IMG/VR virus record: IMGVR_UViG_3300004481_001312 | Location: 5,324 to 69,323 of that record | DNA: 64,000 bases | From: a virus | Lineage: Duplodnaviria > Caudoviricetes | Direction: 5' to 3' (one strand) | Part shown: positions 1 to 17,101 of the stretch, piece by piece | Numbering within the stretch: position 1 is the first letter of the stretch | Layout: the number at the start of each line of letters is the position of its first letter | Notes under the pieces: generated by a model | The model's input: the letters and a program-made list of their open reading frames with translations, nothing else | Told to the model about the DNA's origin: nothing | Databases searched by the model: none | Translations under genes and position numbers: made by a program

Positions 1-1
1 C

Positions 2-697
2 GACCCGTTCACCAACGACATCCCAACCATCGACGGAACCACCGTCGATGGTGAATACGTCAATGGGCGTGACGTGCTCGAACACGGTGTTTCCGCAGGT
101 CGCACCATCGACGGCTCCATAGGGCCTAACCAGCCGTCGTTAAAAGAAGTACCTCTTTTAAGAAGTACCAAGAAGAAAAACCCCCCCACCCCCCACACAA
201 CGGCACCAGCTATCGTTGCCGGCCCAACAAATATGGGGGAGGAGGAGGAAACCAACGACGAAACCACGGCGATAACGGCAGCGATCCGCCATCAACCCAC
301 ATGGCGCCCGGTTGCCGTACGTGCAGCGGTTCGACAGGCCATCGCCGAGGGGCTTCCAGACCCGGTCGCCTATCGGGTCATCGTTGACCTCGCCAAGGGC
401 GACACCTACGGACCAACAACGGCCGGCCCACAACGCATCATCGCTCGCGGCCCCTGGTGGATCTCTGGCGCGGTTTTCGTGCCAGCACCAACCAAGGACA
501 TCAAGAACGACTGCGAACGCCACACTGGGCAACCATCCCACAACTGCGCATGCTGCGCCGGAGAACGTATCGCAGCAGCAGCAGCAACAACACCCAGAGA
601 ACCAGCAGCACAGCCGACCAAGAGGTCAGAAGAGACCGCCAAGCTTCTCTCTGAGATGAGCGGATACAAGTTCGGCGCTAAGGAGATGGCGGCATGA
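2..697 (+). CDS. Phage replication-initiator-like protein, 5'-truncated by window edge
   Basis: The frame of ORF 74..697 is open from position 2. It has internal iteron-like repeats, an A-rich/C-run block (KKKNPPTP) and a C-terminal CxxH..CxCC motif, an architecture typical of phage rep genes that contain their own origin. Confidence 0.55.
   Translation, partial: DPFTNDIPTIDGTTVDGEYVNGRDVLEHGVSAGRTIDGSIGPNQPSLKEVPLLRSTKKKNPPTPHTTAPAIVAGPTNMGEEEETNDETTAITAAIRHQPTWRPVAVRAAVRQAIAEGLPDPVAYRVIVDLAKGDTYGPTTAGPQRIIARGPWWISGAVFVPAPTKDIKNDCERHTGQPSHNCACCAGERIAAAAATTPREPAAQPTKRSEETAKLLSEMSGYKFGAKEMAA
27..114. repeat. Iteron-like 10-mer CCATCGACGG inside the rep gene
   Basis: Copies at 27-36, 42-51 (inverted, 5-nt spacer) and 105-114, a degenerate copy at 57-66, then an A/T-rich tract at about 140-180. 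Confidence 0.7.
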
Positions 698-861
698 CTA
701 TCACCCACTACTCCGATGGGTACCGCACGGTGGACACGTCGAAGCGGGTGCGCGTGCGGCTCTTCGGAAACGCTGTTACCCCACCGGCAGCCGAGGTAAT
801 CACATCCGCGCTCGTCGAATGTCTGACGGGCGAAGACCTACCACGGAATGTGGCTGCATGA
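694..861 (+). pseudogene. 55-aa C-terminal fragment of a C5-cytosine DNA methyltransferase
   Basis: Hand translation gives MTITHYSDGYRTVDTSKRVRVRLFGNAVTPPAAEVITSALVECLTGEDLPRNVAA. GNAVxPP is Dcm motif X. ATGA overlaps at both ends. Confidence 0.65.
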
Positions 862-1589
862 GCGACACCTATGACCGGTGCGTCACCGGCATGTACGACG
901 ACCCCGATCTAACCGGAGACCTACTCATCATCGGCCTCTACTGGGCGCGCGCCGTCCACCTCGGCACACCATCCCTCGACGACATCGGCCGCTCAACAGC
1001 TAAAGCGATCTACGGAAGGGCAGCCCATAGCACACACCTCGCCACCAGTAGCAGTAACAACTACCAGCGCATCTCAGCCGCCGGAACGCAGCGAGTCTGG
1101 GACGTCGTCCGCTCAGATATTCGTAGATACATACCAGACACTAGCCGGGCCGCCAGATGCCAACGCCCAATCCGGAGCACACCGGAGCAGGTGAAGGAGT
1201 TCGGCGAGTCCTGCGGTCGCCTAACCAGTGGGGAGGCATTCCGGCCACGGTTCGTTGATCCGGTCAATGGAATCAGGTACAGCATCGGCTGCTGCTCGAC
1301 GCCACGCTGTGTTGCCTGGTGGAATGAACTACTCGCTAGGAATCGCGCCGAGGCGGAAGCCAATTGCCCGCCGGAGCCATTCGCGAACAGTGGCGGAATC
1401 CTGGCTAGGCATCTGCCAGACCTCGACTGGGAGCTGATCTACCAAGCGCTCGATCCGACCTGGGTGCCACCGAACGAGGCGGAGCAGTGGCGTCCTCCGA
1501 CGCTGACGGTTATCGTCGATATCGATCACGAGGATTCCGCCGATGTGCCGCGCCCGGCACTCCGTGTCGTGAAGGGCGGATTGCGATGA
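858..1589 (+). CDS. Hypothetical phage protein
   Basis: The ATG overlaps the upstream stop (ATGA); several Cys pairs. Confidence 0.65.
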   Translation: MSDTYDRCVTGMYDDPDLTGDLLIIGLYWARAVHLGTPSLDDIGRSTAKAIYGRAAHSTHLATSSSNNYQRISAAGTQRVWDVVRSDIRRYIPDTSRAARCQRPIRSTPEQVKEFGESCGRLTSGEAFRPRFVDPVNGIRYSIGCCSTPRCVAWWNELLARNRAEAEANCPPEPFANSGGILARHLPDLDWELIYQALDPTWVPPNEAEQWRPPTLTVIVDIDHEDSADVPRPALRVVKGGLR

Positions 1590-1622
1590 GCCACCTACAG
1601 ATCGTTCCCATCCGCATGTACA

Positions 1623-1880
1623 TCATCGCGCACAGATGTGCGCCGTGTCCGGTGTCGCAGGCCGAGCCGACCGGAGTACGGCCTCGTGAAACTCATCGAT
1701 CATCACGTCGAGGGACGTCGAGGATCCAGCCCCCATGGCCGCTATTACCTGGCCAACGGCTCTACCCAGGCATAGCACAGCACCACCAGACCGGTTCGAC
1801 CAGGCGCACACCAACCGGTCCTCCTGCACCACTGACAACGTGTTTTCGTCGAACTCGACCTCAACTCGCACTAACATCAA
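1623..1880 (-). CDS. Hypothetical protein, last gene of the head/glycosylation operon
   Basis: 85-aa ORF overlapping the stop of the upstream GT gene. Confidence 0.45.
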   Translation of the reverse strand: MMLVRVEVEFDENTLSVVQEDRLVCAWSNRSGGAVLCLGRAVGQVIAAMGAGSSTSLDVMIDEFHEAVLRSARPATPDTAHICAR

Positions 1881-2646
1881 CGTCTCCCATCAGTCGCGCG
1901 AACTCGCCCCGGGCCTCCGATACCAACGCGCTCATCGTGGCCGGAGTTGCCGCCTCCCGATACCGATGCCATAGCCGCAACCCGGCCTCTGACCCAACCC
2001 CCCTGGATGTCGTACCGCCACGGCGCATCTTTTCTTGCGGGGGATGCCATAGGTGCCACAACGTAGCGGAATGCATAATCGGCGCACCCGCTAGTCGGTG
2101 TAGCGCCAACGACCACGACAGGTCCTCCTGGCCATAGCCGAAGAACCTCGGGTCGATGGGAATCTCGTTGAACACGTCGCCCAGGAGGACCACTGCCCCT
2201 CCCCCGGCCGAACCAACGTAGGTCTCCTCAACCACTCCGGTCATGTCACATGGCAACGGTCGGGTGAGGTCGATACCACCGTTAATAGCTAGCCACGTTC
2301 CCGGCTCCGTCAACCGGTGCACGATCCGAAACGGCATAGCCCACCGGGCCTGCTGACGTCCCCTGTTAGCGGGTCCAACCGCGTCAACTGCTACACCAAC
2401 ACCAACGGGTAGCACGTCAGCGTCTGACACCACTACCACATCATCATCCTGCACGCGGATACCTGCGTTCCGTACCGCGCAGCCCTTCCTCCACGGCCCC
2501 CGGTCCTTCGGCCACTCCCCAATCGCAACCGGCCAAGCAGGGTAGTTCTCCGCCCACCACCGGATCACATGGTCAAACGCGCGTTGCCGGTGCCCACACC
2601 CACTCCGCCACGGAATCACAATCCATACGGTCACGTCGTCTCCCAT
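1861..2646 (-). CDS. GT-A glycosyltransferase (GT2/GT7C-like)
   Basis: IVIPWR start, DxD motif (SDADV), FFGYGQED motif resembling GWGxED of galactosyltransferases, HLWH. Confidence 0.8.
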   Translation of the reverse strand: MGDDVTVWIVIPWRSGCGHRQRAFDHVIRWWAENYPAWPVAIGEWPKDRGPWRKGCAVRNAGIRVQDDDVVVVSDADVLPVGVGVAVDAVGPANRGRQQARWAMPFRIVHRLTEPGTWLAINGGIDLTRPLPCDMTGVVEETYVGSAGGGAVVLLGDVFNEIPIDPRFFGYGQEDLSWSLALHRLAGAPIMHSATLWHLWHPPQEKMRRGGTTSRGVGSEAGLRLWHRYREAATPATMSALVSEARGEFARLMGDVDVSAS

Positions 2647-2843
2647 TTGAGTTCCAGAAACGGCTGGTCGTGGAACGTGTCGGCCGTGATTCGCGCTTCC
2701 ATAGGAATCCCGTTATTGATCATATATCGGACAAGGGCGAACACGGTGGTCGACGCGACGTCGAGATTTCCCCGGACGTATTCCAACGGAACACTCCCAA
2801 CGTCGAGCTGATGTTGTTCCGGTGGAAGCATCAAAACTGCCAT
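2631..2843 (-). CDS. Hypothetical protein
   Basis: 70-aa ORF overlapping both neighbours within the operon. Confidence 0.55.
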   Translation of the reverse strand: MAVLMLPPEQHQLDVGSVPLEYVRGNLDVASTTVFALVRYMINNGIPMEARITADTFHDQPFLELKWETT

Positions 2844-3106
2844 CCACCATGTACCTCGAACTCCGGCCCGTCCTTCCAGGCGCGTTCCCGGACGTACCGG
2901 TTGACGCGACGTCGCGCTATCCGGGCCGCACGCTTCCGACCGAACACGTCCGTCGTGTCAACCTCCACGTCGCCTAGGCCGTCACCCGAAACGGGAACGA
3001 ATATCCGAATCCGCCACGTCCACCGGCCGGCCCTGGACACCCGCGCGTACGCCCTGCCGTGCTGGAACGAACCGATATCAAGAATTTCCTGGTGAACCAT
3101 CACCAT
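2831..3106 (-). CDS. Hypothetical basic protein
   Basis: Likely start MVMVHQE overlaps the stop of 3100..3285. Confidence 0.5.
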   Translation of the reverse strand: MVMVHQEILDIGSFQHGRAYARVSRAGRWTWRIRIFVPVSGDGLGDVEVDTTDVFGRKRAARIARRRVNRYVRERAWKDGPEFEVHGGWQF

Positions 3107-3285
3107 CTGTCCCTTCCCATGAGGGTCGCGACGGTCCGCATCCACGCGACGGTTTTTCCGTTTCCCGATGGGTGATAACTTTCGGACACGTTCGCGTGTT
3201 CGATCATCATCTTCGCAGACGGTGGCCGTGGTATGACCATCAGACCAGACGGCCGGAGCAACCAGTTCATAGCACGAATGATCAT
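3100..3285 (-). CDS. Small hypothetical protein
   Basis: The ATG overlaps the GT stop (ATGA), so probably translationally coupled. Confidence 0.4.
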   Translation of the reverse strand: MIIRAMNWLLRPSGLMVIPRPPSAKMMIEHANVSESYHPSGNGKTVAWMRTVATLMGRDRW

Positions 3286-4076
3286 CGATCATCCCACCGA
3301 CGATATGGTGCCGGATCCCGGATCAAACCGGAGTCGATGGGAGACCGATACCACCAGTGCTTACGCCAAACCTCGGCCAGACCCTCGTCCCCCTCGTTTT
3401 CAAGGATCCGGCCGTATGAGCGCCAATGGGCACCCATGTCTTCTGGAAGGCCAACGGTGGCAGCGTATGCCGCAGCGCCCTGACGGGCCTTATCCACGAA
3501 CTGCTTCGCCGAACGGGCTGGGAAATGCCGTAGTTCAACGACGTCACGGATCGGGAACACGTTGCCCGCGAGGCGAACACCATGGTTGCCCTGCTCGATC
3601 ACGGCCCCCGGCTCCCACCGGAACACAATTTTTGGGAGGATCCCCGGATCGCGTTGCCGCCATATCATCGACTCAAACGGGCACCCGGCCTCATCGATTG
3701 ATGATGCGAGGTGGTTGTACAGATCTGCGTGCAACAGTCGGGTGTCCGCGTTGAACGATGCGAGCACATCCCGGATCCGACCGAGACGCGAGTACCAGAT
3801 CTCGTCGGCATCGAACGGCACGATCCACGTCGCACCACAGCCAGCGGCGCGTTCCGCCAGCGCCGTCATCTTCTCTGACTGGTAGTAGGCCACATCAGGG
3901 TCATCAACCACGGTGAGCGGAAGGTCCCGGGATAGTTCGTCAAGGACCTCCCGAGTTCCGTCCGTTGACCCGTTGTCCGCGATGATCAGTTCATCGACCT
4001 CACCACTGGTGTGTCGGACAACACCCTCGATCACGTCGATTTCGTTCCGGACCATCGACACACCAAACGTCGTCAC
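3282..4076 (-). CDS. GT2-family glycosyltransferase (Glyco_tranf_2_4-like)
   Basis: MVRNEIDVI, IADNGSTDGT, PFDADE (DxD), RHFP. The GTG start at 4076 overlaps the MTase stop (GTGA). Confidence 0.85.
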   Translation of the reverse strand: MTTFGVSMVRNEIDVIEGVVRHTSGEVDELIIADNGSTDGTREVLDELSRDLPLTVVDDPDVAYYQSEKMTALAERAAGCGATWIVPFDADEIWYSRLGRIRDVLASFNADTRLLHADLYNHLASSIDEAGCPFESMIWRQRDPGILPKIVFRWEPGAVIEQGNHGVRLAGNVFPIRDVVELRHFPARSAKQFVDKARQGAAAYAATVGLPEDMGAHWRSYGRILENEGDEGLAEVWRKHWWYRSPIDSGLIRDPAPYRRWDDR

Positions 4077-4723
4077 CGTGGCCTCCTCGCATCGAACAGG
4101 ACCGGGTGAACAACATCCCACGGTGGTGCTGTCGGAGTGTCGAACAGGGCTGGGTATGTGGTCTCCGGCAGCCGGGACGTATTGACCGCTACGAGGAGAT
4201 TCTGCCGATACCAGTTCTCGACCTTGGGGTTGTCCCAGATCATCCACCGGAGCGCACCTGACACCATGTAGTTGTTGGCGTCGAACAGGGCAGCCCAGTG
4301 GGTTGTCGGTTGTTCGTTGAGGTGCCCAGCACCACCCTGGCCAGGAATGGCGGCGGAAAACAGGACCACTTCGGATAGCCGGCAGAGATCCTCAACGAAC
4401 GACTCGGCGCGTCCCGGCGGTAGGTGCTCGGCAACCTCCAAACTCACAGCCAGGTCGAAGTGGCCAATAGTGTTCGGCACCGGTTTGGCCAGATCATGGG
4501 TGTAGTAGGGGATGTGTGTTCGGTCCCCGGATATCCACGGTCCGTCGATACCGAGGACGTCACAGCCGACGTCAGCGAACGCACGAGCCCACCAGCCCTC
4601 GCCGCAGCCGACGTCAACGACGGTTCGTGGGTTGAAATGGTCGGTGACGAGGGGAACGACGACGGCAGCGGAGGCCTGCACACCAGGTCTAATCGTGTCA
4701 TAAAACCATTGGTTGTAGGTCAC
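4073..4723 (-). CDS. Class I SAM-dependent methyltransferase, probably sugar-modifying
   Basis: VVDVGCGEG motif I, FDLAVSLEVAEH, PGQGGAGHLNEQ. Confidence 0.9.
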   Translation of the reverse strand: MTYNQWFYDTIRPGVQASAAVVVPLVTDHFNPRTVVDVGCGEGWWARAFADVGCDVLGIDGPWISGDRTHIPYYTHDLAKPVPNTIGHFDLAVSLEVAEHLPPGRAESFVEDLCRLSEVVLFSAAIPGQGGAGHLNEQPTTHWAALFDANNYMVSGALRWMIWDNPKVENWYRQNLLVAVNTSRLPETTYPALFDTPTAPPWDVVHPVLFDARRPR

Positions 4724-5739
4724 TGGATGTCACCAATCGCCCTACGGATACCCTCATTCAACCCGACCACCGGCCGATAGATTTCCCTCATCCTGGTTGG
4801 GTCACCTACCCGCACCATGACCCCAGTTGGCTGGTCCGCAAGATATGTGACCTCGTCATGGTCAACGGTTCGTCCCATGGCCTTTGCCATATGAACCGCC
4901 AACTCGCCAAACTCGACACCATTACCACTGCACAGATTGACCGGCAACCGACAGTCCTCGTTGTACACGGCGAGGGCACCGTTGACGACGTCGTCAATGT
5001 GGATCCAGTCCCGATACTGGCCACGTGAACCCCACACCGACATGTCTCCGGCCGCTACCCGTTGCAGAACGGCCCGGAACGGATAGGTGAGATCCTGGTC
5101 TCCGCCGTAGCCGGAGAACGGACGAAGGACATGGACTCGCAGGCCCTGCCTGGTTGCGGCATTGGCCAACTGCTCGCCGGTGAGTTTCGCCCATCCATAT
5201 CGGGCGTCCGGTTGCCGGACGTTCACCAGGTCGATCATGTCCTCGTGCAGGGGAATCCATCGCGCCGAACTATCGTCCATGTTGTGGTAGAACGCGGAAC
5301 TCGGTTCCTGTAGGGCGATCGGGTACGCGGCGGACGACGAGAAGTAGAGCACCGCATGCTGCTGGGTGCGAATCGCCCAGTCGAATAGCTGCGCGTCGAG
5401 TTCGAGGTTCAACGCCAGTAGCGACGGATTCCCATCGATCGCGGCGCGTCCGCCGACGTGGTAGGCGCAATGCACCACAAGATCGAACTGGGTTGGCTCA
5501 TAGTCATTGATACCGAAGACCCGTCGAAGTCGCGCACCATAGCCATGGCCATCTGCCTTGAATAAATCCCGTACATCCCCGTGAAGAAAACCATCGTCGA
5601 CTGTGGAACCGGGAACGGCGCAGCCACGTCGTTCCCTCTCACGGAGATCAATGCCGACGATATCCCAGCCGCGACGCTCTAACTCATCACACATATGCCG
5701 ACCCACGAACCCGGACGACCCGGTAACCAAAGCCCTCAC
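4720..5739 (-). CDS. NAD-dependent nucleotide-sugar epimerase/reductase (extended SDR)
   Basis: LVTGSSGFVG (GxxGxxG), FSSSAAY, YGWAK (YxxxK), RPFSGYG. Confidence 0.92.
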   Translation of the reverse strand: MRALVTGSSGFVGRHMCDELERRGWDIVGIDLRERERRGCAVPGSTVDDGFLHGDVRDLFKADGHGYGARLRRVFGINDYEPTQFDLVVHCAYHVGGRAAIDGNPSLLALNLELDAQLFDWAIRTQQHAVLYFSSSAAYPIALQEPSSAFYHNMDDSSARWIPLHEDMIDLVNVRQPDARYGWAKLTGEQLANAATRQGLRVHVLRPFSGYGGDQDLTYPFRAVLQRVAAGDMSVWGSRGQYRDWIHIDDVVNGALAVYNEDCRLPVNLCSGNGVEFGELAVHMAKAMGRTVDHDEVTYLADQPTGVMVRVGDPTRMREIYRPVVGLNEGIRRAIGDIQ

Positions 5740-6449
5740 CGACGCCCACCTCCCATACTGGCTAGCTGAAAAATGACCTCAGATACCGCCCGTACGACCC
5801 CGGTCGCGTGGAGCTGGCGGAATGCGACCTCATCAACCTCGTAGACCTTCGGATCGTTGACACGCTCATATCCGATGTCCATGGCGGCCTTGCCGTTCAG
5901 GTAGTGCATGTGCTCGACCACGATGTCTGGTAGGTACCGCAGTTTGCCGACCGGCCTGGCCATATCCCGCCACAGCGTGTCGACGTACATATGCCGTAGC
6001 GAAGGGTGGCACATCCACCCCAGCCGCCTTACGATGTCGGCCGACATCGCGCATTGCGTTGGGACAAAATCGAACTGCAACAGGTCGTTGCCATAGACGA
6101 TTCCGGCACCCATCTGTCGGAGCGCCGTCAGATACGCCGCGTCCCAACCATGGGTTCGTGGCCGGTGGTCGTCACCGAGGAACCCAACGGCGGTCACAGC
6201 CGGATTTTCAACGACCCGCAGCGCTGCCTCGTTCAACGCGGCAACCATCCACCCACCCTGGACGACCTCGACTCTACTGACGTCCGGTCGAATACCTGCG
6301 ACTTCGTGATACAGATCGATCATCGGATCGTCGATGTCAACGGCGAGGACCACCACCGTTGTGTGAATCTGCCGGGTATCGACCACCGCGTTGATGAGGT
6401 CGAGTGCCGCGTCCGGGCGGCCCCTAGTTGGAACGATGGCGGTCAGCAT
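5736..6449 (-). CDS. GT-A glycosyltransferase
   Basis: AIVPTRGRP, FLGDD, YGNDL, VEHMH; paralog of 8792..9520. Confidence 0.8.
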   Translation of the reverse strand: MLTAIVPTRGRPDAALDLINAVVDTRQIHTTVVVLAVDIDDPMIDLYHEVAGIRPDVSRVEVVQGGWMVAALNEAALRVVENPAVTAVGFLGDDHRPRTHGWDAAYLTALRQMGAGIVYGNDLLQFDFVPTQCAMSADIVRRLGWMCHPSLRHMYVDTLWRDMARPVGKLRYLPDIVVEHMHYLNGKAAMDIGYERVNDPKVYEVDEVAFRQLHATGVVRAVSEVIFQLASMGGGRR

Positions 6450-6451
6450 TG

Positions 6452-7159
6452 TCAGTACCCCGTTCCTACACGGTTTTGCCCAATGTGTTCAATCCATACC
6501 CCGGAGTCGCGGGATCCCCAATAGGCGTATGTGACCTTGTCACCTGGAACTTCTGGGGTCCCGTAGGTCATGAGGTGATGATGAAAAGTCCCTTCCGAAT
6601 AGCATCCTGGCCGTGAATCCGGCCATGGCACGCCGAGTAGGGACGTTCGGAATAGTGGACAGTTCGTCGTGAAAAACGCGCGCTGCTCCAACCATTGCCG
6701 TCCAGTGTCGTCTCGCATGTCTCGGTACCAGTCCGGGTGCAACTCAACGACGCCACCGGCCGCGATCTCAGCATCGTTCCACGACTGCCGACGTAGAGCC
6801 ACTTCAGCTATATGTGGTCGTTCGTCGAGCAGACTAGCCATTCCATATAGATCGATGGCGCGACTGAAAACGAAATCCTGCTCGATCAGAAACACGAACC
6901 GCGCCGTCGTGTCCTGACGCACCTGCCGCCAAACCTGCTGGTATGCCCCAGCGCACCCTTGACGTGGTCCGCCGTTGATGTGCCAGAACTGTGGGTATTC
7001 CCTAGCGATCCGGTCCCGATATCCCAGGTCACCGGTGTCGTCGTACATCCACTTCTCAACGATGGGGCCATCGAGGTTCCACATCGAGTCGACGCAGCGG
7101 CGAAGGTATCCGTCACGGCCGTCTCCGATGATGACCACAGCGACCGTTTGTTCTTTCAT
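6452..7159 (-). CDS. GT-A glycosyltransferase
   Basis: VVIIGDGRDGYLRRCVDS, YDD, FLIEQDF (ExD variant of DxD), HIG near the C-terminus. Confidence 0.7.
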   Translation of the reverse strand: MKEQTVAVVIIGDGRDGYLRRCVDSMWNLDGPIVEKWMYDDTGDLGYRDRIAREYPQFWHINGGPRQGCAGAYQQVWRQVRQDTTARFVFLIEQDFVFSRAIDLYGMASLLDERPHIAEVALRRQSWNDAEIAAGGVVELHPDWYRDMRDDTGRQWLEQRAFFTTNCPLFRTSLLGVPWPDSRPGCYSEGTFHHHLMTYGTPEVPGDKVTYAYWGSRDSGVWIEHIGQNRVGTGY

Positions 7160-8160
7160 GATGTCAGATTCGCGAGGACGGCACGAAGGTTTCCATGGTC
7201 GATGTCATCGAGGCTGGCTAGTTCTCCTGGCGACAGTGGAGGCACGTCGACATGACTGATCAACGGGTGCACCGGTCGGCAGTCCAGTTCTCTGTCGGAG
7301 AGCCGCTGTTCGTGAAGTTTCTCCCCGGGCCGCAGGCCGGTGTAGGTGATGTCGATGTTCACGTTTAGTTCCTTTGCCAACGCCCTGGCTAAGTCGACGA
7401 TCCGGATTGGCTCACCCATGTCGAGGACGAGCGTTTGTCCTGGACTGCCGATGGATCCGGAGTGGATGGCCAGGGCTACGGCCTCATGAACGGTCATGAT
7501 GTGCCGTGTCATGTCGGGGTGTGTGATGGTGACCGGAAGGCCAGTAAGAAGTTGGTAGGTGAACGTGTCGATAACAGATCCACGGCTACCCAACACGTTA
7601 CCGAACCGTACGGACAGGTACCGGAGTGGCGCGTACCAGGCGGTTATACGTTCGCCTATACGTTTAGTCATGCCAAGGACGCATTCGCACGTTGCCGCCT
7701 TGTCAGTGGATATGTTGATGAATGTGTCGGCACCAGCCGCAGCCGCTAGTCCGGCCACGTTGACGGTTCCCCACACGTTGGTTTTGACCGCCTCACATGG
7801 ATATCGCTCCAATAGCGTCTGGTGCTTTAGCGCCGCTGCGTGTAGGACTACGTTGGGGCGTCTAGTTTTCATGATTTCGGCTAGGCTACGCCGGTCGCGG
7901 ATGTCGGCCAGGATGATATCTGGTGTGTCGAATACTCTACCGGTCATTGATAGTTGGGTGGCGTGTAGTGCTGATTCGTCGCGGTCAATCATGATCAGTT
8001 CTGTTGGTGCCGCAGGGCCGGCCCCATGGATTTGGCGACATAGCTCTGCGCCGATCGATCCACCAGCACCGGTGACCATGACCCTTCTACCCGTTAGGTA
8101 CGATATGTTCGGGTTGGTCTTCCGTGAGGCACGACCCAGCAGAATTTCCTCGTCGATCAT
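7156..8160 (-). CDS. CapD/PglF-like UDP-sugar 4,6-dehydratase, soluble catalytic domain only
   Basis: MVTGAGGSIGAELCRQI, HAAALKH, ISTDKA, VRFGNVLGSRGSV, GLRPGEKLHE. ATG 8160 overlaps the upstream stop. Confidence 0.92.
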   Translation of the reverse strand: MIDEEILLGRASRKTNPNISYLTGRRVMVTGAGGSIGAELCRQIHGAGPAAPTELIMIDRDESALHATQLSMTGRVFDTPDIILADIRDRRSLAEIMKTRRPNVVLHAAALKHQTLLERYPCEAVKTNVWGTVNVAGLAAAAGADTFINISTDKAATCECVLGMTKRIGERITAWYAPLRYLSVRFGNVLGSRGSVIDTFTYQLLTGLPVTITHPDMTRHIMTVHEAVALAIHSGSIGSPGQTLVLDMGEPIRIVDLARALAKELNVNIDITYTGLRPGEKLHEQRLSDRELDCRPVHPLISHVDVPPLSPGELASLDDIDHGNLRAVLANLTS

Positions 8161-8819
8161 AGCAACACCCCTCCCGGGCCTATTCCGTTGGCTGCCTCGA
8201 TCGCTCGGTGGGTCGCCATCTTGACAGCGTGTGAGACGCCACGGTTGCGGGAGTGTGGTCTGACATGCGCCCGGTAGATTGCCGACCTTGTTGCGACAAT
8301 CTTCGCCCCTGCCAGGTGGCATCGTAGCCACAGGTCCCAGTCCTCCGACCAGACGAAGTCGCGCCAACCACCCACCTCGCGGACGAGGTGGGTGCGTACG
8401 GCAGCGCCAACGACGATCCAGTTCCCGGACTGTAGGCATTCCCCGGTGCACTCGTGGCTATGCCCGTAGACCCTGGGAAACGCCGGTGTAGACGTCGTGT
8501 GGCCTCGGTTGACGTACCGGACCATGGGTGCCCTGACATCCCCGAAACCACGGGAATTCATCCCGTCGAGGTATCCGGGTTCGAGTTCGTCATCCGCGTC
8601 GAGGTGCACCACCCATGGGGTTGTAACCTGCGCAACCGCGCCGTTCCGCGCTTCGTGCAGCGTATCCGCGTGCACATGAACGACCCTGCACCCCTCGGCT
8701 TGAGCTGACGGGATCGCGCGGGTTACGGCAAGGCGTCTCCAATCTTCTTCACCGAACGTGCCGATCACGATCGTCGTCGTATCAGCCGTGATCAGTTGAT
8801 TCCGCCGTTCTTCTCCCAT
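8157..8819 (-). CDS. GT2-family glycosyltransferase
   Basis: EARNGAV, VHLDADD (DxD), VGGW..SEDWDLWLR. Confidence 0.85.
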   Translation of the reverse strand: MGEERRNQLITADTTTIVIGTFGEEDWRRLAVTRAIPSAQAEGCRVVHVHADTLHEARNGAVAQVTTPWVVHLDADDELEPGYLDGMNSRGFGDVRAPMVRYVNRGHTTSTPAFPRVYGHSHECTGECLQSGNWIVVGAAVRTHLVREVGGWRDFVWSEDWDLWLRCHLAGAKIVATRSAIYRAHVRPHSRNRGVSHAVKMATHRAIEAANGIGPGGVLL

Positions 8820-9520
8820 AGGTGTCTCCTGCGCTGGTAGATACTCCTACCGATTTGCATCCTTCGTCGCTGTTGGAGATAAAGCCCGTCCATCGGCCCT
8901 TTCCCCCAGTTTGGATGCATGTGTTCAACATGCGCGTCGATAGCCATAGCCCAGGCGTTTCTGGCCTTCGCCGTGCCTACGAGTTCATCATCGATGTACT
9001 CGTGCGGATATCCCGCATGGAATATCATTCCAGGTTCTGGCTGATCAATGGTTCCCAACCGCGCATATTCGCGGGTTACCAGGAAATGCGTCGCGTGTTG
9101 CCCAGCAAGGACCCTAGGGTTACCCAGATCGTTCGTGCCGACCACGCCAATACCCGGAGTCAAAGCGGCGATGGCCTCCTCGAACCACCCTGGCCAGAAT
9201 CGCAAATCATCAGCACCAGTGAAAATTAGCGGTTCGGTTGTACTCATAACACCAGTGTTGATTTTCGTGGCGTAGTCACCAGAATTACGGGAAGGCATTT
9301 CGTGGAATTTGCTACCAGACTCGATAACAGCCCGACGAACCTCAGTATCGTTGACAGTTATCATAAACAACACATTTGCTTCCGGTGTCGCCTCACGAAT
9401 CGACTCCAACACCGGAAGCACCCGATGCGCTCTTCCGAGCATCGGAATTATAATGACTAGGCCAGATCGGGGCGAGGACAATGACCCTCGCCCCGATCTT
9501 GATTGATATGGAAACATCAC
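8792..9520 (-). CDS. GT-A glycosyltransferase
   Basis: IIIPMLGR, KINTGV, FTGADDL, GTNDL, VEHMHP. Confidence 0.8.
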   Translation of the reverse strand: MMFPYQSRSGRGSLSSPRSGLVIIIPMLGRAHRVLPVLESIREATPEANVLFMITVNDTEVRRAVIESGSKFHEMPSRNSGDYATKINTGVMSTTEPLIFTGADDLRFWPGWFEEAIAALTPGIGVVGTNDLGNPRVLAGQHATHFLVTREYARLGTIDQPEPGMIFHAGYPHEYIDDELVGTAKARNAWAMAIDAHVEHMHPNWGKGPMDGLYLQQRRRMQIGRSIYQRRRHLWEKNGGIN

Positions 9521-9693
9521 GACGTTGTTGTCTGCTTCGCCACGGTGCCACCGATTCGGGCAGCAGCCAATTTAGCCGCGATCTCCGATGTCTTCGTAGA
9601 CACAACGGACCCGGAAGCGTCGAATACCTGCCATGTCGTAGCCGACGCGGCATTGGCCTGCTGGTTCGCGACCACCTTGTTACCGCAACACAT
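9517..9693 (-). CDS. Small head-region protein (MCCG-type, 58 aa)
   Basis: Hand translation gives MCCGNKVVANQQ...QTTTS. The ATG overlaps the protease stop and the stop overlaps the GT start (GTGA). Below the ORF-track cutoff. Confidence 0.6.
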   Translation of the reverse strand: MCCGNKVVANQQANAASATTWQVFDASGSVVSTKTSEIAAKLAAARIGGTVAKQTTTS

Positions 9694-11654
9694 CAGAACA
9701 CCTCATCGAGTTCGGCCTGGATACGGACAATGACACCGGCGTTAACCGCGTCTTCGACCTGTCCGAGCAAGTTGTCAACATCATCATCGACGGTAGGGTC
9801 CATGGTGTCAGCTGCCGTCACAACGGTCTCGTCTCCACTAACAGGGGCAATCACCGGGCGGAGGTGGGTGGCGAGACGTCCGGCGAGAAGGTCCGCCAAC
9901 CGCTCGTAATCGATGGTCATCCCACCGGACGACTCGGCGATTGACGGTAGCACCACACCAGCAGCGGTGAGTACCGTAACCTGGCCAGCCGACATCCGGA
10001 ACCGTGGCAATGGGAACCCAGGCTCCTCACGAGCGAGGGCGAGGATCTCAACGAGTTCCGGCTTCCCCCCGGTCGGTCTCCAGTCCCCTGACACCTTCTT
10101 CCGCGACAACGCGGCGAGGTCCTCGACCGTCGCGGATGGGTTAGCGATCCCGGAAACCCACACGGCGTTTAGCCGGGTGTCCTCCCCTGCACGCACCCAC
10201 GCGACCGTGGACAATCGGTCGTGGTGCGCTATCGCTCCGCCAAGCGACAACTTGAGGCACGCGTGGTCGTCGTTCCTCCCCCCGCACTGCCGGCACGCGC
10301 AGCCGAACTTCCCTCCCCCGGTGGTGATCCGGCCGACCGGTATGGGGAACCCCTCCGGCTGGTATCGGTGGAACATGCCATACCCGTCATTGTCGACGGG
10401 GGCCGTGGTGCACACCCCGGGCATACCAACATGGCAGGTGTCGTGAGTGGCGACGTGCCCGAACACCCTGCCGTCCTCGGTAACCGTGATCGGTGTGACC
10501 TGGTCGAGGTTTGGATTCTCGAACAATGCCGGGTCGTATCCGGTCATCAGTCCGGCAGCGGCTGTGACAGCCGTGAGCACCGCGCTGGTTTCCAACATCA
10601 TGTCGATCATGCTGTTCGCTTCGTAAGCCGCTAGCCCAGAGACAATCGACGCGGTTTCCTCCGCCCATGGAACAGTGATCGTGTCGTCCTGGAATTCCTC
10701 CGCCATCCGTCTGTACAACCCATCGACCACAACCTTCATGGCGTCCTGGTCGGCCTGGGGGATATTAGTTCCACCACGGGCACCCTGCAGAACGCCGGCA
10801 ACGGCGAATACCGCTCGGGGAACGATCCGTTGAGTTCCATCGATCATGTCCGCGATCTGGAACCCGTATGCTCCCTTGGTCTCCGCGTTCGCCGCGTCGT
10901 CCTGGTACAAGAACGCCTGCGCGTACCGGCCCCAATCCGGGTTATCGCCCCCGATTCCGGCATTGTCCGCGACCCGCTTCTCAGCGGCCGTACCATCCCA
11001 GGCCATGTCCCGTTCGGCAAGTGGCATATCTGACCAGCCGGTCTTCCGGACGGCCGCTGTGATGGCCTCCTCGACGAACAACTGGAACGGCCGGCATTCG
11101 GCGAACGCCGGAATCGACACTAACGTCGCTGCCGCGATCTGGTATTCGGTGAACAGGAGTTCGAGTTCGGCGTCTTCCGACCCCTCTCCCCAGAACAGCT
11201 CGTCGAACTGCTCCTCCGTGAGCGCCTCGTCAGAACCCTTAAGCGCGATCACGGCCTCGCAGGATCCCGTGTCAACGGATGGCCCGATGACCTTTTTTCC
11301 GAGGAGGTGCATCGACTCGGCAACGTCCTCGTGGAGGCGTGGCATGTCGTTCGGGTTGATGTCATCGAACATCCGTCCGAATCCCCACGCAGCGCGTAGG
11401 TCATTCGCGAACTTGGATGGTTTGATGCATTTCGCGTCGATCCATCCAGCGTCGATCGCTTCCGCGACCGTCCCGTACTCGATCCGTTCGAGCGATCCGA
11501 CGATTACCGAGTTGTCGTGTCCCTCGGTGTCCGCGCGTTGCCACTTCAACGGCAACGGCAACTCACGCGAAGACACTCCGGACGACAGGAAACGCCGGCC
11601 GTCCCCGGTTGACACGTCGAGGGGGGCGAGCATGCCCCGCCATCCGGTACTCAT
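9693..11654 (-). CDS. Capsid maturation protease-like multidomain head protein
   Basis: N-terminal WRGMLAPLDVSTGDGR..LPLPLKWQ..GH, as in actinophage prohead proteases; follows MuF; second domain GRVFGHVA.. SGDWR. Confidence 0.7.
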   Translation of the reverse strand: MSTGWRGMLAPLDVSTGDGRRFLSSGVSSRELPLPLKWQRADTEGHDNSVIVGSLERIEYGTVAEAIDAGWIDAKCIKPSKFANDLRAAWGFGRMFDDINPNDMPRLHEDVAESMHLLGKKVIGPSVDTGSCEAVIALKGSDEALTEEQFDELFWGEGSEDAELELLFTEYQIAAATLVSIPAFAECRPFQLFVEEAITAAVRKTGWSDMPLAERDMAWDGTAAEKRVADNAGIGGDNPDWGRYAQAFLYQDDAANAETKGAYGFQIADMIDGTQRIVPRAVFAVAGVLQGARGGTNIPQADQDAMKVVVDGLYRRMAEEFQDDTITVPWAEETASIVSGLAAYEANSMIDMMLETSAVLTAVTAAAGLMTGYDPALFENPNLDQVTPITVTEDGRVFGHVATHDTCHVGMPGVCTTAPVDNDGYGMFHRYQPEGFPIPVGRITTGGGKFGCACRQCGGRNDDHACLKLSLGGAIAHHDRLSTVAWVRAGEDTRLNAVWVSGIANPSATVEDLAALSRKKVSGDWRPTGGKPELVEILALAREEPGFPLPRFRMSAGQVTVLTAAGVVLPSIAESSGGMTIDYERLADLLAGRLATHLRPVIAPVSGDETVVTAADTMDPTVDDDVDNLLGQVEDAVNAGVIVRIQAELDEVF

Positions 11655-11670
11655 ATCCAGCCCCTAACTG

Positions 11671-12630
11671 TCAGTAATTCTTGAATTGGCGATTAGTGAG
11701 ATCAACAGTTTCTCCCGGTTCCAACAAGATCGTCGTGCATCGGCACTGAATAACCTCCTTGCCCGGTCCCATCGGATCCCCGGGAAACCGCAACGACGCG
11801 CCACCGACGATGAACGGCTGCCCGGTCGGCACCCGCTGACCATCAGCGCGTCGGTGGGTATGGCGGACCCGTTTATCCACCGTCGCCACCCACATTTGTT
11901 CGAACGGCGTTCCCAACTCCGTCGCAACGGCCGCGAACGCGTCCTGCCGGCCTGCGTTTAACGCCCCCATCGTCTCCGTCCGCGCGACCACGGTAGCCCG
12001 GTTCGGCCAGCGCTCCGTACGCGTGGTAGATAACACCTCGTCAACCCGATTAGCGATCTCCGGCGCACCCTCACCAAGATTCGCCCCGACAGACACTTGC
12101 CGGGCGACGAGGTCAAACGTCGAATCCACGGTTCGAACCATCCGGTTGGACACCGTTGCCAGGTGCTCGACCACTGCCGGCCTCGAATCGAACCGGTATC
12201 CGTCACCAAGCAACGTTCGGTAGGCCGTACCGACAGCGTCCCGGACCGGCCCCCGGACGACACGATCAACGGCGGCTGCCCACTCAGGTGACTTCGAAAA
12301 AACAGCCAAGGGGTCTGGGAGAACCGTGTGGAGAACCGCGCGGGAAACAGTCACCAACCACGCCGACAACTCGACCCATAAGGCCTCACGGATCGCGGCT
12401 TCCACCATGGCGGCCTCGGCAGCCGCTTCCATCCTGGGGACAAGCCACGGGTCGGTACCCTCGCCATCCCACACCGGACCCGTGTCGGCTCCAGTGATCA
12501 CCCACGCGCCGTGCTCTTCCGCGAACCATGCCGCGTCGTCGGGGCCGTCCGGGTAGAACACGTCACCGAGGGCGTTGGTCATCGCCCCGGGCACCGTGCG
12601 CGCGTATCCGAGTGACCACAGGTCATCCAC
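11671..12630 (-). CDS. MuF/SPP1 gp7-like minor head protein
   Basis: RATVVARTET, WVATVDKRVRHTH, FPGDP..IQCRC. Confidence 0.88.
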   Translation of the reverse strand: MDDLWSLGYARTVPGAMTNALGDVFYPDGPDDAAWFAEEHGAWVITGADTGPVWDGEGTDPWLVPRMEAAAEAAMVEAAIREALWVELSAWLVTVSRAVLHTVLPDPLAVFSKSPEWAAAVDRVVRGPVRDAVGTAYRTLLGDGYRFDSRPAVVEHLATVSNRMVRTVDSTFDLVARQVSVGANLGEGAPEIANRVDEVLSTTRTERWPNRATVVARTETMGALNAGRQDAFAAVATELGTPFEQMWVATVDKRVRHTHRRADGQRVPTGQPFIVGGASLRFPGDPMGPGKEVIQCRCTTILLEPGETVDLTNRQFKNY

Positions 12631-14641
12631 AGGACATCACCTTTAGCCGGTTGATGGTCTCCGGGGCCGAGAACATGGTTTCGACGTCTATGGGGTCATA
12701 GGAGATTCCCCGTACCAGTAGGTCACGGCAATGCTCCTCGACCAACGCTACGAACAGCCGGTCATCGATCCCGAACTCCGACCCGACACCGGAGAATTCA
12801 TCACGCCACGCTCCTGCGAGGAACGTCGCGATCTTCTGCGACCCCGAAATCGGTCCGTGATGCACGTGCAACTGATAGGAGGGCACCCCGGCTGGCCGTT
12901 TCGAGTGCGGTACTAGGCGAGTTCCGGCGATACCGAGCGCACGACGGATAGCCAACTGCGCCGCGAATGACAATCCTGGTGGTGCCGTTGGTGGCCCTGC
13001 AGGGGGCGGTCCCTGGCCATCCTCGCCCCCCTCCTCCTCAACCTCGGGCTCTTCGGGGAGGGTTTCCTCCTCCTCGGTGGGCTGTGTCTCCTCCGTGACC
13101 GTGGTGGTCGTGGGGACCGGTGCCTCAACCGTTTGGGCCTTTGGTAGTCCGATCAACGCCCGGAGGGTTGGGTCGGACAGGACCGCGTCGGGGGACGTGA
13201 GGAGTAGTTTCTCTACGAGTCGCACGGAGCGCTCGGCTGGGGATGGGGCGTCCCCGTCGGACCACGACGACGCTGCCCTGGTTACGGCGTCTGACAACAG
13301 CATGCGGTCGTGGAGGTCCTTGGCGTCCCCGGACCGGTCGGGGTTTGTGGTCAATGGCGAGGTGTCGAACGCGTAGAAGTAGCCGTTCGGGTCCTCGCCC
13401 ATCGCTTCGAGCGCGGGTACGAGGTAGCCGGTGGTGAGGGCCGCTGCGATGCGGGTCAACACCGGTTTGATGTGGATCTGTACGGCCTCGCGGCTGATAG
13501 CCCAGGCGTTCCAGTGGTTTGTCGACGAACCTAACCCGATCAGTACCTCTGGTGGGATGTCCAGCGACTGGGCTAGTGAACGGAGTGCGCCTTCCCGCAT
13601 CGTCCCAATCTGCGCAGACAACTCCGACCACAACGTGATGTGTCGGATCTTCTCGATATCGTCGCCTGGGCCGGTGATGATGATCGGCACCATGGCCTCA
13701 GCCGATGACCGGTCCCGCAGCGATCGGGACATGACCCGGCCTAGGAGCGCGGAGAACCCAGCGGCCCCGGCCGGGTCGTCGTCGCCCCGGGGGAGTTCCA
13801 GCGATTCGGGGAGCGCGAACACGCCGGCCCCGGACAGCCGGCTGTCCAACTCAGCGAATTCGCGTTTCCGCAGGGCCTCCATCTCGCGGAGGTCAGGGAT
13901 CGCGGATCGGGTTGCCGAGTCTGGTTCTGACGTGTCGGCTGGGTGTGGTGTCCACACCCGGAGGATCAGGTCGATGCCCTCGCGGTATTCCATGATCCCG
14001 CCCCCGTGCACCGGGGAACGGATGACCGTGATCGTGTCGCCCTGCCTTTTGATCTGCCGGGATGTGACGACCCACCAGAGGTCTTCGCCGTCCTCCCCGC
14101 CCCCGGACTGGGCGACCACGTACGCCTCGCCGGGAACGAACAGGTCGATACCGAGGAGGCGCAGCGCCTCGGCCTTCGCGTCGCCGGTACCGAGCGGCCC
14201 GGCTGCGAGCTCTGCTACTGGGCCGGTATCGACGCGTTCGCCGGGGGACCCGTCCGGGTTGGCCTTGGCGACGTACAGGTTACAACGGGAGACCGAGTTA
14301 CCTACCCAGTTCGCGACGAATCGGAGTTGTCCGGTTATGTCGTACAGGCGCCACGCGTCGGCCTGCCATGCCCTGTCCCCGAATCGGTAGGAGCGCCACG
14401 ACGCGCCATCCATGGACAACCGGGACACGGCCGCTGTGACCGACGTGCCAGGTGATCCGTCTGCGAGCGCTCGACGCGCCGAGGACGTGACGATCTCCCG
14501 GAACCGGTTTGTCGTGGTGTCGGCACCCCGGAAACGCCAGAGGACCGGTGGTGAGAACAGTCCGTCGATCTCCTCGCGTAGGACCGGGTCGACCTCGCCA
14601 ACCGCGCGTAGTTGCCGCTTCCTCTGCCGCAGTTTCATCAT
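12623..14641 (-). CDS. Portal protein
   Basis: WQADAWRLYDITGQLRFVANWVGNSVSRC and NHWNAWAI motifs of actinophage portals; lies between terL and MuF; start inferred from the ATGA overlap at 14641. Confidence 0.8.
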   Translation of the reverse strand: MMKLRQRKRQLRAVGEVDPVLREEIDGLFSPPVLWRFRGADTTTNRFREIVTSSARRALADGSPGTSVTAAVSRLSMDGASWRSYRFGDRAWQADAWRLYDITGQLRFVANWVGNSVSRCNLYVAKANPDGSPGERVDTGPVAELAAGPLGTGDAKAEALRLLGIDLFVPGEAYVVAQSGGGEDGEDLWWVVTSRQIKRQGDTITVIRSPVHGGGIMEYREGIDLILRVWTPHPADTSEPDSATRSAIPDLREMEALRKREFAELDSRLSGAGVFALPESLELPRGDDDPAGAAGFSALLGRVMSRSLRDRSSAEAMVPIIITGPGDDIEKIRHITLWSELSAQIGTMREGALRSLAQSLDIPPEVLIGLGSSTNHWNAWAISREAVQIHIKPVLTRIAAALTTGYLVPALEAMGEDPNGYFYAFDTSPLTTNPDRSGDAKDLHDRMLLSDAVTRAASSWSDGDAPSPAERSVRLVEKLLLTSPDAVLSDPTLRALIGLPKAQTVEAPVPTTTTVTEETQPTEEEETLPEEPEVEEEGGEDGQGPPPAGPPTAPPGLSFAAQLAIRRALGIAGTRLVPHSKRPAGVPSYQLHVHHGPISGSQKIATFLAGAWRDEFSGVGSEFGIDDRLFVALVEEHCRDLLVRGISYDPIDVETMFSAPETINRLKVMSCG

Positions 14642-14970
14642 TTCCGCCCGTATGCGTAGATCATGCCGGTAACTTGCGAAACCGCGAACGCCAGCACGAT
14701 GACCAAGACGATTGGGGTTGTGCCCCACAGGTAGATGATCGGCGAGGTTATGTAGCCGATCCAGATAGACACGCACCACGGGCAACCAGTGGCGTCTCCA
14801 TCCGGTTCGCCAAGGAGGTAGACCAGTAGTCGGTGCGTTCGGCGATGTGGGTCGAATCGTGCGATGAGACGCTCGCGAACCTGGCGCGTGATCTCGTCAT
14901 GTGTGATCAACGTGGTTGCCCGCGTTACCGCTAGGGCGTACAACGCCAACACGACAACAGACGGCATCAT
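14638..14970 (-). CDS. DUF1360-like membrane protein
   Basis: RATTLITHD, CPWCVSIW, hydrophobic segments. Confidence 0.7.
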   Translation of the reverse strand: MMPSVVVLALYALAVTRATTLITHDEITRQVRERLIARFDPHRRTHRLLVYLLGEPDGDATGCPWCVSIWIGYITSPIIYLWGTTPIVLVIVLAFAVSQVTGMIYAYGRK

Positions 14971-15082
14971 GCCGTGATCATAGGCGCAGCCGGCCGATTA
15001 TTGTCCTACCGCACCAGAGAATCAAGGGGAACGGCTACTCCAACTCTGTCATCATCGAAGGTAGCGCTGCTATCCTCATTGG

Positions 15083-15376: not shown

Positions 15377-15398
15377 TCCAAGTTGCCACTGGCGTCAA

Positions 15399-17078: not shown

Positions 17079-17101
17079 GGCCCCTCCCAGTTGTTGGTGG
17101 T

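Follow-up and report, generated by a model that had tools for sequence, protein, structure and literature searches.

The late head operon of an uncultured actinomycete phage carries a cassette of genes that probably constitutes a phage-encoded, cytoplasmic system for glycosylating virion proteins. It lies in a 64,000-nucleotide stretch (the window; positions 5,324 to 69,323 of IMG/VR record IMGVR_UViG_3300004481_001312) in which every gene of the head and cassette run is on the minus strand. In the order of that strand, 12 tightly coupled genes come after those for the large terminase, portal, MuF, a protease-like protein and a 58-aa protein. They encode six soluble glycosyltransferases (GT1 to GT6), two SDRs, a SAM methyltransferase and three small proteins (h153, h66 and h84).

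15399-17228, minus: large terminase (TerL), context, upstream part of the same-strand late run (phrog_38, E 1e-76; PF03237)
12623-14785, minus: portal protein (phrog_776, E 1e-146; 46% identical to the phiAsp2 portal)
11671-12630, minus: MuF-like head morphogenesis protein (PF04233, E 1e-11; phrog_2468, E 3.5e-40)
9693-11654, minus: capsid maturation protease-like protein, 653 aa (phrog_21470, E 4e-108; phrog_18402, head maturation protease, to residues 362-568, E 4e-30)
9517-9693, minus: g58, conserved 58-aa protein (homologues after the protease in 10 relatives)
8792-9517, minus: GT1, GT2-like GT-A glycosyltransferase (PF00535, 19 bits, E 1.2e-3, below cut-off; phrog_14945, E 2.7e-4)
8157-8819, minus: GT2, GT-A glycosyltransferase, distant Che8 gp108 N-domain / phiAsp2 Pas33 type (PF13632, 39 bits)
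7156-8160, minus: SDR1, PglF/WbpM/CapD-type UDP-HexNAc 4,6-dehydratase, 334 aa from the ATG at 8160 (PF02719, E 9e-83)
6452-7159, minus: GT3, GT2-family glycosyltransferase (PF00535, 25.5 bits; phrog_3047, E 1e-9)
5736-6449, minus: GT4, phage-typical glycosyltransferase, Pas34 N-domain family (phrog_14945, E 1.6e-40)
4720-5739, minus: SDR2, extended SDR nucleotide-sugar epimerase/reductase (PF01370, E 2e-30)
4073-4723, minus: SAM-dependent methyltransferase (PF13489, E 2e-10)
3282-4076, minus: GT5, GT-A glycosyltransferase (PF13704, 47 bits; GT-A fold model)
2831-3292, minus: h153, Arg-rich ORF, weakly conserved (partial homologues in relatives L024 and L015)
2631-2831, minus: h66, small conserved protein (65-78% identical homologues in L010, L014 and L015)
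1861-2634, minus: GT6, core glycosyltransferase, Che8 gp109 / Corndog gp37 homologue (phrog_1721, E 2.9e-12, full length)
1623-1877, minus: h84, small conserved protein that follows GT6 and closes the run (homologues 55-74% identical in L010, L014, L015 and L024)
819-1589, plus: 256-aa gene outside the system, between cassette and capsid gene
record 2435-4321, outside the window: major capsid gene (phrog_777, E 8e-124)
record 1593-2399, outside the window: phrog_779 gene
record 623-1321, outside the window: tail tube gene

The head run and its cassette

A preliminary description of this DNA had placed head and glycosylation genes on one strand, with two SDRs and a methyltransferase among them, and so they are (the latter three at 7156-8160, 4720-5739 and 4073-4723); its 13 genes after the 58-aa ORF become 12 on recounting. 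Its six GT-A glycosyltransferases hold as six glycosyltransferases, with a DxD-type acidic motif conserved across homologues in all six, the GT-A fold having been checked for four only. The short overlaps it reported between genes are seen again with RBS-supported starts, as ATGA, GTGA or TGATG overlaps, overlaps of 11-28 nt or a 2-nt gap. Over window positions 1-18500 there is no excess of promoter-like sites (5 versus 5.8 in shuffles) or of terminator-like sites (6 versus 10.5), and this, together with the translational coupling of the cassette to the portal, MuF and protease genes ahead of it, argues for a role in virion glycosylation. So does the solubility of all the enzymes, which, as first described, have neither signal peptide nor TM segment, since the Kyte-Doolittle maximum in any 19-residue stretch is 1.66.

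The block had also been thought to sit where scaffold and major capsid genes normally do; the capsid gene is not displaced but is just outside the window, ~3 kb beyond its start. Counting against virion glycosylation, two plus-strand genes, of 256 aa (no match in family searches) and 423 aa (kept in L014, L015 and L024), separate cassette from capsid gene. At the other end of the cassette, g58, for which family searches also gave no match, has an invariant N-terminal MCCG and, in five of eight aligned homologues, a Thr/Ser-rich C-terminus; it is possibly a small virion protein.

The enzymes and their known counterparts

GT6, the last transferase and the sole constant gene, is present in every cassette-bearing relative, and in five of them (L030-L034) it immediately precedes the capsid gene, both lying on one strand. 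Che8 gp109 and Corndog gp37 match its family, phrog_1721, at E 1e-110 to 1e-114, and GT6 aligns with their profile over 222 columns (hhalign probability 97.5%, E 6e-12), a remote homology. It has invariant SDAD, GxGxED and HLWH motifs and a GT-A model (pLDDT 87.6) whose nearest structures are beta4GalT7, chondroitin synthase and ppGalNAc-T. Che8, Corndog and Myrna are reported to use transferases of their own to glycosylate capsid and tail tube proteins (PMC12363180, PMC11600133), and full-length homology of GT6 to two enzymes of the experimentally established Che8 and Corndog systems points to the same role here. Among its small neighbours, h66 always precedes GT6 in close relatives, while h153, split over two frames in L010, is a doubtful or decaying gene; family searches with either gave no match.

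The GT1, GT4 and GT6 families have overwhelmingly viral members, which also favours a function in the particle. The Atlas structure of GT1, in which a GADD motif is conserved, has TM 0.85-0.87 to viral GT2 clusters; translation probably begins instead at 9481 or 9442, judging from homologues that align from residue 21 only. GT2 has an invariant DADDE and matches phrog_9549 (E 2.5e-5) and, weakly, phrog_14775 (E 3e-6), whose members include the Che8 gp108 N-domain and Pas33. GT4 is 37% identical to the N-terminus of phiAsp2 Pas34, with an Atlas TM of 0.93 to the Pas34 family in clusters that are 83-100% viral. Among solved structures, GT5 is nearest to enzymes with peptide or protein substrates, a further argument for polypeptide acceptors: GmaR, the Listeria flagellin O-GlcNAc transferase, by sequence (22ao, E 6.5e-5), and SunS and ThuS, the glycocin S-/O-glycosyltransferases, by fold (best Foldseek matches, E 1e-8; VIA Z 15.0 and 16.0 over 204-209 aligned residues). 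All three are cytoplasmic enzymes acting directly on polypeptides. However, GT5 is only 13-17% identical to them, is without a TPR or peptide-binding C-domain, and its Z values tie with that for the polysaccharide fucosyltransferase WrtF (15.2). FDADE is invariant in GT5 homologues, and some relatives have a variant of the cassette that lacks GT5. Also to be set against the case is that, for GT1 to GT5, no specific relationship to the Che8/Corndog enzymes was detectable.

SDR1, whose RBS-supported start gives an ATGA overlap, has the GxxGxxG and TDK motifs but not YxxxK, resembling in this and in PF02719 membership the PglF/WbpM/CapD UDP-GlcNAc 4,6-dehydratases that serve protein and O-antigen glycosylation in bacteria (best PDB match the soluble domain of PglF/WlaL, 5bju, E 3e-56; no NCBIfam equivalog cut-off reached). 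Unlike them it has no N-terminal membrane domain, and since no aminotransferase or acetyltransferase follows it, its pathway would not lead to bacillosamine. SDR2, which some relatives carry without SDR1, has both GxxGxxG and YxxxK, with generic PDB and NCBIfam matches only. The methyltransferase, with VVDVGCGEG as SAM motif I, is by its sequence a candidate sugar O-methyltransferase.

Che8 gp108-110 (Freeman et al. 2023, Cell Host Microbe, as cited in PMC12363180 and PMC11600133) are likewise soluble phage-encoded GT-A enzymes with a methyltransferase, and the likeness extends through GT6 to gp109 and faintly through GT2 to the gp108 N-domain family. Their genes, though, are at the far right genome end and comprise three transferases with no sugar-nucleotide enzymes, versus six and SDRs in the head operon here. 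Corndog (Cluster O) has gp35-38, an O-methyltransferase and three transferases, between portal and protease (PMC4351075). That cassette too is inside the head-assembly operon, with gp37 homologous to GT6, but the slot differs (protease to capsid here), the methyltransferases are of different families, and there are four genes without dehydratase or SDR in place of twelve. Corndog gp36 (phrog_4447) has no counterpart in the window phage. Neither has the gp110/gp38-type transferase (phrog_854), absent from the record and from five cassette-bearing relatives, which counts against virion glycosylation, that type being essential in Che8 and Corndog according to PMC12363180.

By portal, MuF, capsid and tail tube the nearest cultured relative is the Actinoplanes phage phiAsp2. 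Its three-gene cassette Pas33-Pas35, which shares the GT4 and, weakly, GT2 families noted above, is at the tail module end and includes a gp110-type transferase; its protease-capsid slot holds unrelated opposite-strand genes. Pas34 is called a DNA methyltransferase in PHROG and RefSeq and an O-methyltransferase in the original phiAsp2 record.

Recurrence, protein tails and other possible targets

In related IMG/VR phages the same slot is occupied by transferase, methyltransferase and SDR genes in varying combinations. Further afield, L008, with a 330-aa HK97-type capsid protein, has GT1-GT2-SDR1-GT3-GT5-GT6 directly after the capsid gene, and a Streptomyces sp. DSM 44915 contig has methyltransferase, transferase and GT6-like genes between tape measure and minor tail gene. 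This makes three separate lineages with such a cassette in a structural operon, and recurrence in unrelated phages argues for action on the virion.

The carriers' own capsid and tail proteins point the same way. In the window phage the capsid protein ends in SHS, the phrog_779 protein in IPT and the tail tube protein in LPT, and all three end in Ser or Thr in nine of nine GT6-carrying relatives versus 13 of 58 others. The carriers' capsid tail consists of the family's GCC(P) end, as in phiAsp2 (GCCP), prolonged by a short stretch whose last residue is Ser. In Che8 (capsid and tail tube) and Corndog (capsid) the C-terminus is Gly-Ser. Two unrelated lineages with homologous cassettes, L105 and L008, end their capsid proteins in TGS and AGS and their tail tube proteins (putative in L008) in AGS and AAS. 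Against this, the tails of the window phage (HS and PT) are not Gly-Ser as in the proven cases, Ser-terminal tail tubes are also common in relatives without the cassette, and the Ser/Thr pattern spans one or two clades and so represents few independent events.

Might the enzymes act elsewhere? It is unlikely that they modify a host envelope polymer or lipid (a teichoic-acid-like polymer, lipoglycan or glycolipid) during infection or carriage instead of virion proteins, the purpose then being, for instance, to block superinfection or progeny re-adsorption to debris. The soluble cytoplasmic GT-A enzymes TarS, TarP and RmlT, which act on wall teichoic acid, are among GT5's structural neighbours (Z 13.8-13.9), PglF/WbpM-type dehydratases usually supply surface glycan pathways, and variable genes in a fixed slot are reminiscent of host serotype loci. 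Yet the cassette encodes neither a lipid-carrier transferase nor a flippase nor any membrane protein, its genes adjoin capsid or tail genes in late structural operons of three lineages, its transferase families are almost exclusively viral, and GT6, at its core, has homologues that act in virion glycosylation.

Rather improbable too is that the target is non-structural, either a small molecule or a cytoplasmic protein of phage or host, or that the cassette is a mobile moron island without any function in the particle. Gene content does turn over fast, GT5 does resemble bacteriocin-pathway peptide glycosyltransferases, and the filling of the protease-capsid slot in phiAsp2 marks it as an insertion hotspot; however, the adjacency of GT6 and capsid gene is conserved, virion proteins bear Ser/Thr or Gly-Ser tails, and the run has no bacteriocin-like precursor or exporter. 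Glycosylation of phage DNA, as a hypermodified base bearing an oligosaccharide that evades restriction, is very improbable. The classic role of phage glycosyltransferases is in DNA modification, a QueE-like radical SAM gene adjoining the terminase gene suggests that this phage may invest in DNA modification, and there is the database label of Pas34, countered by its original annotation. But neither a thymidylate-synthase-like hydroxymethylase nor TGT/DpdA was found in the record (87% complete), known DNA glucosyltransferases attach a single sugar or a few, versus six transferases here, and the genes are late, alongside head genes, with GT6 homologous to protein-glycosylation enzymes. The preference for virion protein over DNA in the preliminary description is therefore supported, by GT6, recurrence and the Ser/Thr tails as well.

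For acceptors, identity of sugars, order of reactions and timing of expression we infer a scheme for virion glycosylation as follows. SDR1, and possibly SDR2, would convert host UDP-HexNAc to a 6-deoxy or 4-keto derivative, and the soluble GT-A transferases would then assemble a glycan stepwise, directly on the major capsid, phrog_779 and tail tube proteins at C-terminal tails that end in Ser/Thr. The methyltransferase would O-methylate a sugar. No polyprenyl-phosphate transferase, flippase or polymerase was found among the genes of the run. Six transferases plausibly predict a more elaborate glycan than in the three-transferase Che8 case, as was first proposed; it is equally possible that each of several acceptors receives a glycan of its own. 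GT6 would be the invariant core and the remaining enzymes an exchangeable set, and since that set differs between close relatives, related phages probably display different glycans.

Gene order and organization of the cassette

The source record (linear, 69,323 bases, estimated to be 87% complete) has no DNA-level match among cultured phages when bases 1-20000 of the window are compared by megablast. By protein, its nearest cultured relative is Actinoplanes phage phiAsp2 (portal 46% and capsid 51% identical), with Cluster B mycobacteriophages and Gordonia phages coming next. The minus strand carries, in this order, genes for TerL, portal, MuF, a protease-like protein of 653 aa and a protein of 58 aa, and then the ORFs of what is here termed the cassette. 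The preliminary description had these on a single strand, which they are, but counted 13 where we find 12:

8792-9517, minus strand, glycosyltransferase GT1
8157-8819, minus strand, glycosyltransferase GT2
7156-8160, minus strand, short-chain dehydrogenase/reductase-type enzyme SDR1
6452-7159, minus strand, glycosyltransferase GT3
5736-6449, minus strand, glycosyltransferase GT4
4720-5739, minus strand, SDR2
4073-4723, minus strand, methyltransferase
3282-4076, minus strand, glycosyltransferase GT5
2831-3292, minus strand, small ORF h153
2631-2831, minus strand, small ORF h66
1861-2634, minus strand, glycosyltransferase GT6
1623-1877, minus strand, small ORF h84

That the genes are joined by overlaps holds, given RBS-supported starts: the junctions are ATGA, GTGA or TGATG overlaps, overlaps of 11-28 nt or a 2-nt gap. 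Shuffled sequence contains promoter-like and terminator-like sites at least as often, and the hairpin 3' of the last gene (z -1.2) is no better than those of shuffles. As had been proposed, membrane segments are lacking, with a TM-like stretch in none of 13 products (maximum KD19 1.66), and no Pfam, NCBIfam or PHROG family of a polyprenyl-phosphate initiating transferase, flippase or transporter is represented within the run.

The block was at first described as sitting where scaffold and major capsid genes are usual, but the capsid gene is not missing. It sits on the minus strand in the first 5.3 kb of the record, where the major capsid protein (628 aa, phrog_777) is encoded along with the tail tube (phrog_792) and a protein of phrog_779, and two opposite-strand genes of no assigned function lie between this group and the cassette. 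The stretch between protease and capsid genes is referred to below as the slot. In phiAsp2 as well as in Stinger no glycosyltransferase gene comes between those for portal, MuF/protease and capsid, the slot of phiAsp2 being occupied by unrelated opposite-strand genes.

Enzymes of the cassette and their known counterparts

The assignment of six glycosyltransferases is borne out by Pfam and PHROG matches, by GT-A models for four of them and by a DxD-type acidic motif that is invariant among homologues in all six families. GT2, GT3 and GT5 have Pfam GT2-clan matches above cut-off, structure models of our own for GT5 and GT6 match GT-A enzymes, and Atlas models of GT1 (by sequence the weakest of the six) and GT4 reach TM 0.85-0.93 to viral GT2 clusters. 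PF00535 as a generic detector misses known glycosyltransferases (in G002, for example) and was left out of the counting. Searches of PDB sequences with GT1, GT3, GT4 and GT6 gave nothing meaningful; the families of GT1, GT4 and GT6 are almost wholly viral, and O-methyltransferase fusions are frequent among the relatives of GT1 and GT4. GT5 has a sequence match to GmaR, a flagellin O-GlcNAc transferase, and its best fold matches are the peptide S-/O-glycosyltransferases ThuS and SunS, in a Z-score tie with the fucosyltransferase WrtF.

Family matches and motifs likewise confirm the two SDRs and the SAM methyltransferase (Methyltransf_23 family). PglF-type dehydratases have a catalytic Thr-Asp-Lys motif in place of YxxxK, and SDR1, taken from the ATG at 8160, has its NAD(P)-binding GxxGxxG as GAGGSIG at residue 31 and TDK at 152 with YxxxK absent; it matches PF02719 (E 9e-83, 278 bits) and PglF (5bju, E 3e-56), and is predicted to be a soluble PglF/WbpM/CapD-type UDP-HexNAc 4,6-dehydratase. 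SDR2 is a canonical extended SDR whose specificity the matches do not narrow and, since the two do not always co-occur in relatives, a pathway of two steps cannot be taken as fixed. Three of the 12 are small ORFs of no assigned function, among them h153 (2831-3292, minus strand), very Arg-rich and weakly conserved. It looks doubtful, since a frameshift divides it between two reading frames in the relative L010, and may be a decaying gene or no gene at all.

[quoted passage not shown] By BLASTP no window protein has a significant match to Che8 gp108-110 or Corndog gp35-38, and the link of GT6 to these enzymes is seen by profile methods only. The match of GT6 to phrog_1721 (E 2.9e-12) spans positions 3-231 of a 232-position profile; this is the family that Che8 gp109 and Corndog gp37 match with E 1e-110 to 1e-114, and hhalign of 16 GT6 homologues against gp37 and gp109 gives a probability of 97.5% (E 6e-12, 222 columns). 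GT2 is a weak match (E 3e-6) to phrog_14775, whose members include the N-domain of Che8 gp108 and phiAsp2 Pas33, with an hhalign probability against gp108 of 21.6%; the cassette methyltransferase is by hhalign unrelated to Corndog gp35.

No match to phrog_854 at E <= 1 is present in the phage's own record at its 87% completeness. The family is absent from five relatives with the cassette, of which two are 93-96% complete, and was not found in L008, L105, L010 or L007, three of these four loci being fragments; for L105 this applies to the assembly. Among relatives lacking the GT6 cassette it was found in 8 of 10 records tested, both misses being 14-20% fragments, and such phrog_854-bearing relatives share with phiAsp2 a Che8-like set of three genes that closes the tail module. 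The idea that phrog_854 tracks Gly-Ser-like capsid tails was rejected, as it is also in 5/5 complete relatives whose capsid ends ..GCCP. The phiAsp2 set occupies L104 1788-4967 (28287-31466 of the phiAsp2 record) and comprises Pas33 (phrog_14775), Pas34 (a GT4-like N-domain plus an O-methyltransferase) and the gp110-like Pas35 (phrog_854); the RefSeq label of Pas34 as a DNA methyltransferase looks like a misannotation. Set beside the Che8 and Corndog systems, the one here has a larger enzyme set and its own sugar-nucleotide enzymes, and it lacks the gp110-type enzyme.

Turnover of the slot and the ends of virion proteins

Querying IMG/VR with the protease, SDR1 and capsid proteins yielded ~95 related loci. 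Slot content varies even among relatives whose proteases are 81-85% identical: one of them lacks the methyltransferase but has all the other cassette genes, in others a Methyltransf_24 enzyme occurs together with a different GT2 and a protein of 732 aa without assigned function, and yet another has a 368-aa protein, also without assigned function, with GT4, methyltransferase and SDR2. All variants retain GT6 and the 58-aa gene, and h66 and h84 are present in the four closest full-cassette relatives. Five relatives further removed (capsid identity 55-62%) have GT6 as the next gene upstream of the capsid gene, with both on one strand. Two lineages unrelated to the window phage also have cassettes. 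That of L008 directly follows a 330-aa capsid gene; the other is in L105, a phage-like 54-kb contig of Streptomyces sp. DSM 44915 with an S78 protease and an HK97 capsid. Taken together, what the cassettes have in common is the GT6 family. Large slot-filling proteins gave no usable PHROG or Pfam match, and may be unrecognised glycan-building enzymes. The features concerned are:

L105 8785-10672, flanked by tape measure and a minor tail protein of 1148 aa: cassette of methyltransferase, glycosyltransferase (phrog_9549) and GT6-like enzyme (phrog_1721)
L028 2895-5093, slot-filling protein of 732 aa
L027 1214-3169, slot-filling protein of 651 aa
L025 2988-4094, slot-filling protein of 368 aa

As a separate matter, insertions of ~900-960 nt, in frame and free of stops, are present in the TerL and MuF genes of close relatives but not in those of the window (L009 3362-4264, 7678-8634 and 8992-9900; L014 8954-9901). 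These are probably inteins, since the TerL insertion ends ..VHN and is followed by Cys.

Che8 capsid ends in ..KTGS, Che8 tail tube in ..SDGS and Corndog capsid in ..LVGS. Freeman et al. reportedly place the glycans at C-termini, and these Gly-Ser ends fit that position. The tags of the window phage differ, being Ser/Thr-terminal rather than Gly-Ser: ..SHS for the capsid, ..IPT for the phrog_779 protein and ..LPT for the tail tube. Ser/Thr is the last residue of all three proteins in 9/9 relatives carrying GT6, a count that overstates independence because the carriers form one or two clades, versus 13/58 others; among relatives without GT6, 17/64 have a capsid ending in Ser/Thr and 26 have one ending in Pro. 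The capsid tail of carriers resembles the ..GCC(P) end of the family with an extension of one to four residues ending in Ser. The two unrelated lineages lend independent support to the tag pattern, with capsid ..AGS and putative tail tube ..AAS in L008, and capsid ..TGS and tail tube ..AGS in L105.

Conserved cysteines were also seen in three of the proteins, the first two encoded outside the window, and could serve for disulfides, metal binding or modification:

L005 2435-4321, minus strand, major capsid protein: Cys pair ..GCC.. near the C-terminus, conserved across ~80 relatives
L005 623-1321, minus strand, tail tube: ..CGCQ.. motif, conserved across ~80 relatives
window 9517-9693, minus strand, 58-aa protein: invariant N-terminal MCCG

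S-glycosylation of these cysteines was considered and set aside: the motifs occur whether or not GT5 or the cassette is there, and the fold match is the one specific point in its favour.

What may be glycosylated, and what it would mean

The earlier preference for glycosylation of virion proteins over modification of DNA is supported, though unproven, by the homology of GT6, the linkage to the structural operon, the tails, and the lack from the record of a hydroxymethylase or TGT/DpdA. Glycosylation of the phage DNA, which the last of these points disfavours directly, is unlikely also in view of a cassette with six glycosyltransferases placed among late genes. (A radical SAM, QueE-like, gene at window 17102-17842, minus strand, adjoins the terminase.) Modification of the host envelope by the cassette we consider less likely than virion glycosylation, as no membrane or lipid-carrier component is present and both the structural-operon linkage and the Ser/Thr tails would be left unexplained. 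The cassette is best read as a supported but unproven virion glycosylation system with serotype-like turnover of its genes. A more elaborate version, to which we would give a small though not negligible chance, sees the slot as a rapidly exchanging, serotype-like glycan locus giving differing virion glycans in close relatives, with glycosylation started without a gp110-type enzyme on new tags (..PT, ..HS) beside Cys motifs that are kept throughout the family (GCC in the capsid, CGCQ in the tail tube). Initiation may then fall to a peptide glycosyltransferase resembling SunS, ThuS or GmaR, and if it does, S-linkage could occur as well as O-linkage.

To our knowledge experimental proof of virion glycosylation is limited to a few mycobacteriophages. 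If virion glycosylation is indeed what the cassette does, the phenomenon extends to phiAsp2-like phages of filamentous actinomycetes, with an enzyme set much larger than in known cases and making its own modified sugar nucleotide. That close relatives differ in its composition but have conserved head genes on its flanks implies selection on the glycan itself, for which, the habitat being soil, antibodies cannot be the agent. Ser/Thr or Gly-Ser C-terminal tags would then offer a handle for predicting from sequence which virion proteins are glycosylated.
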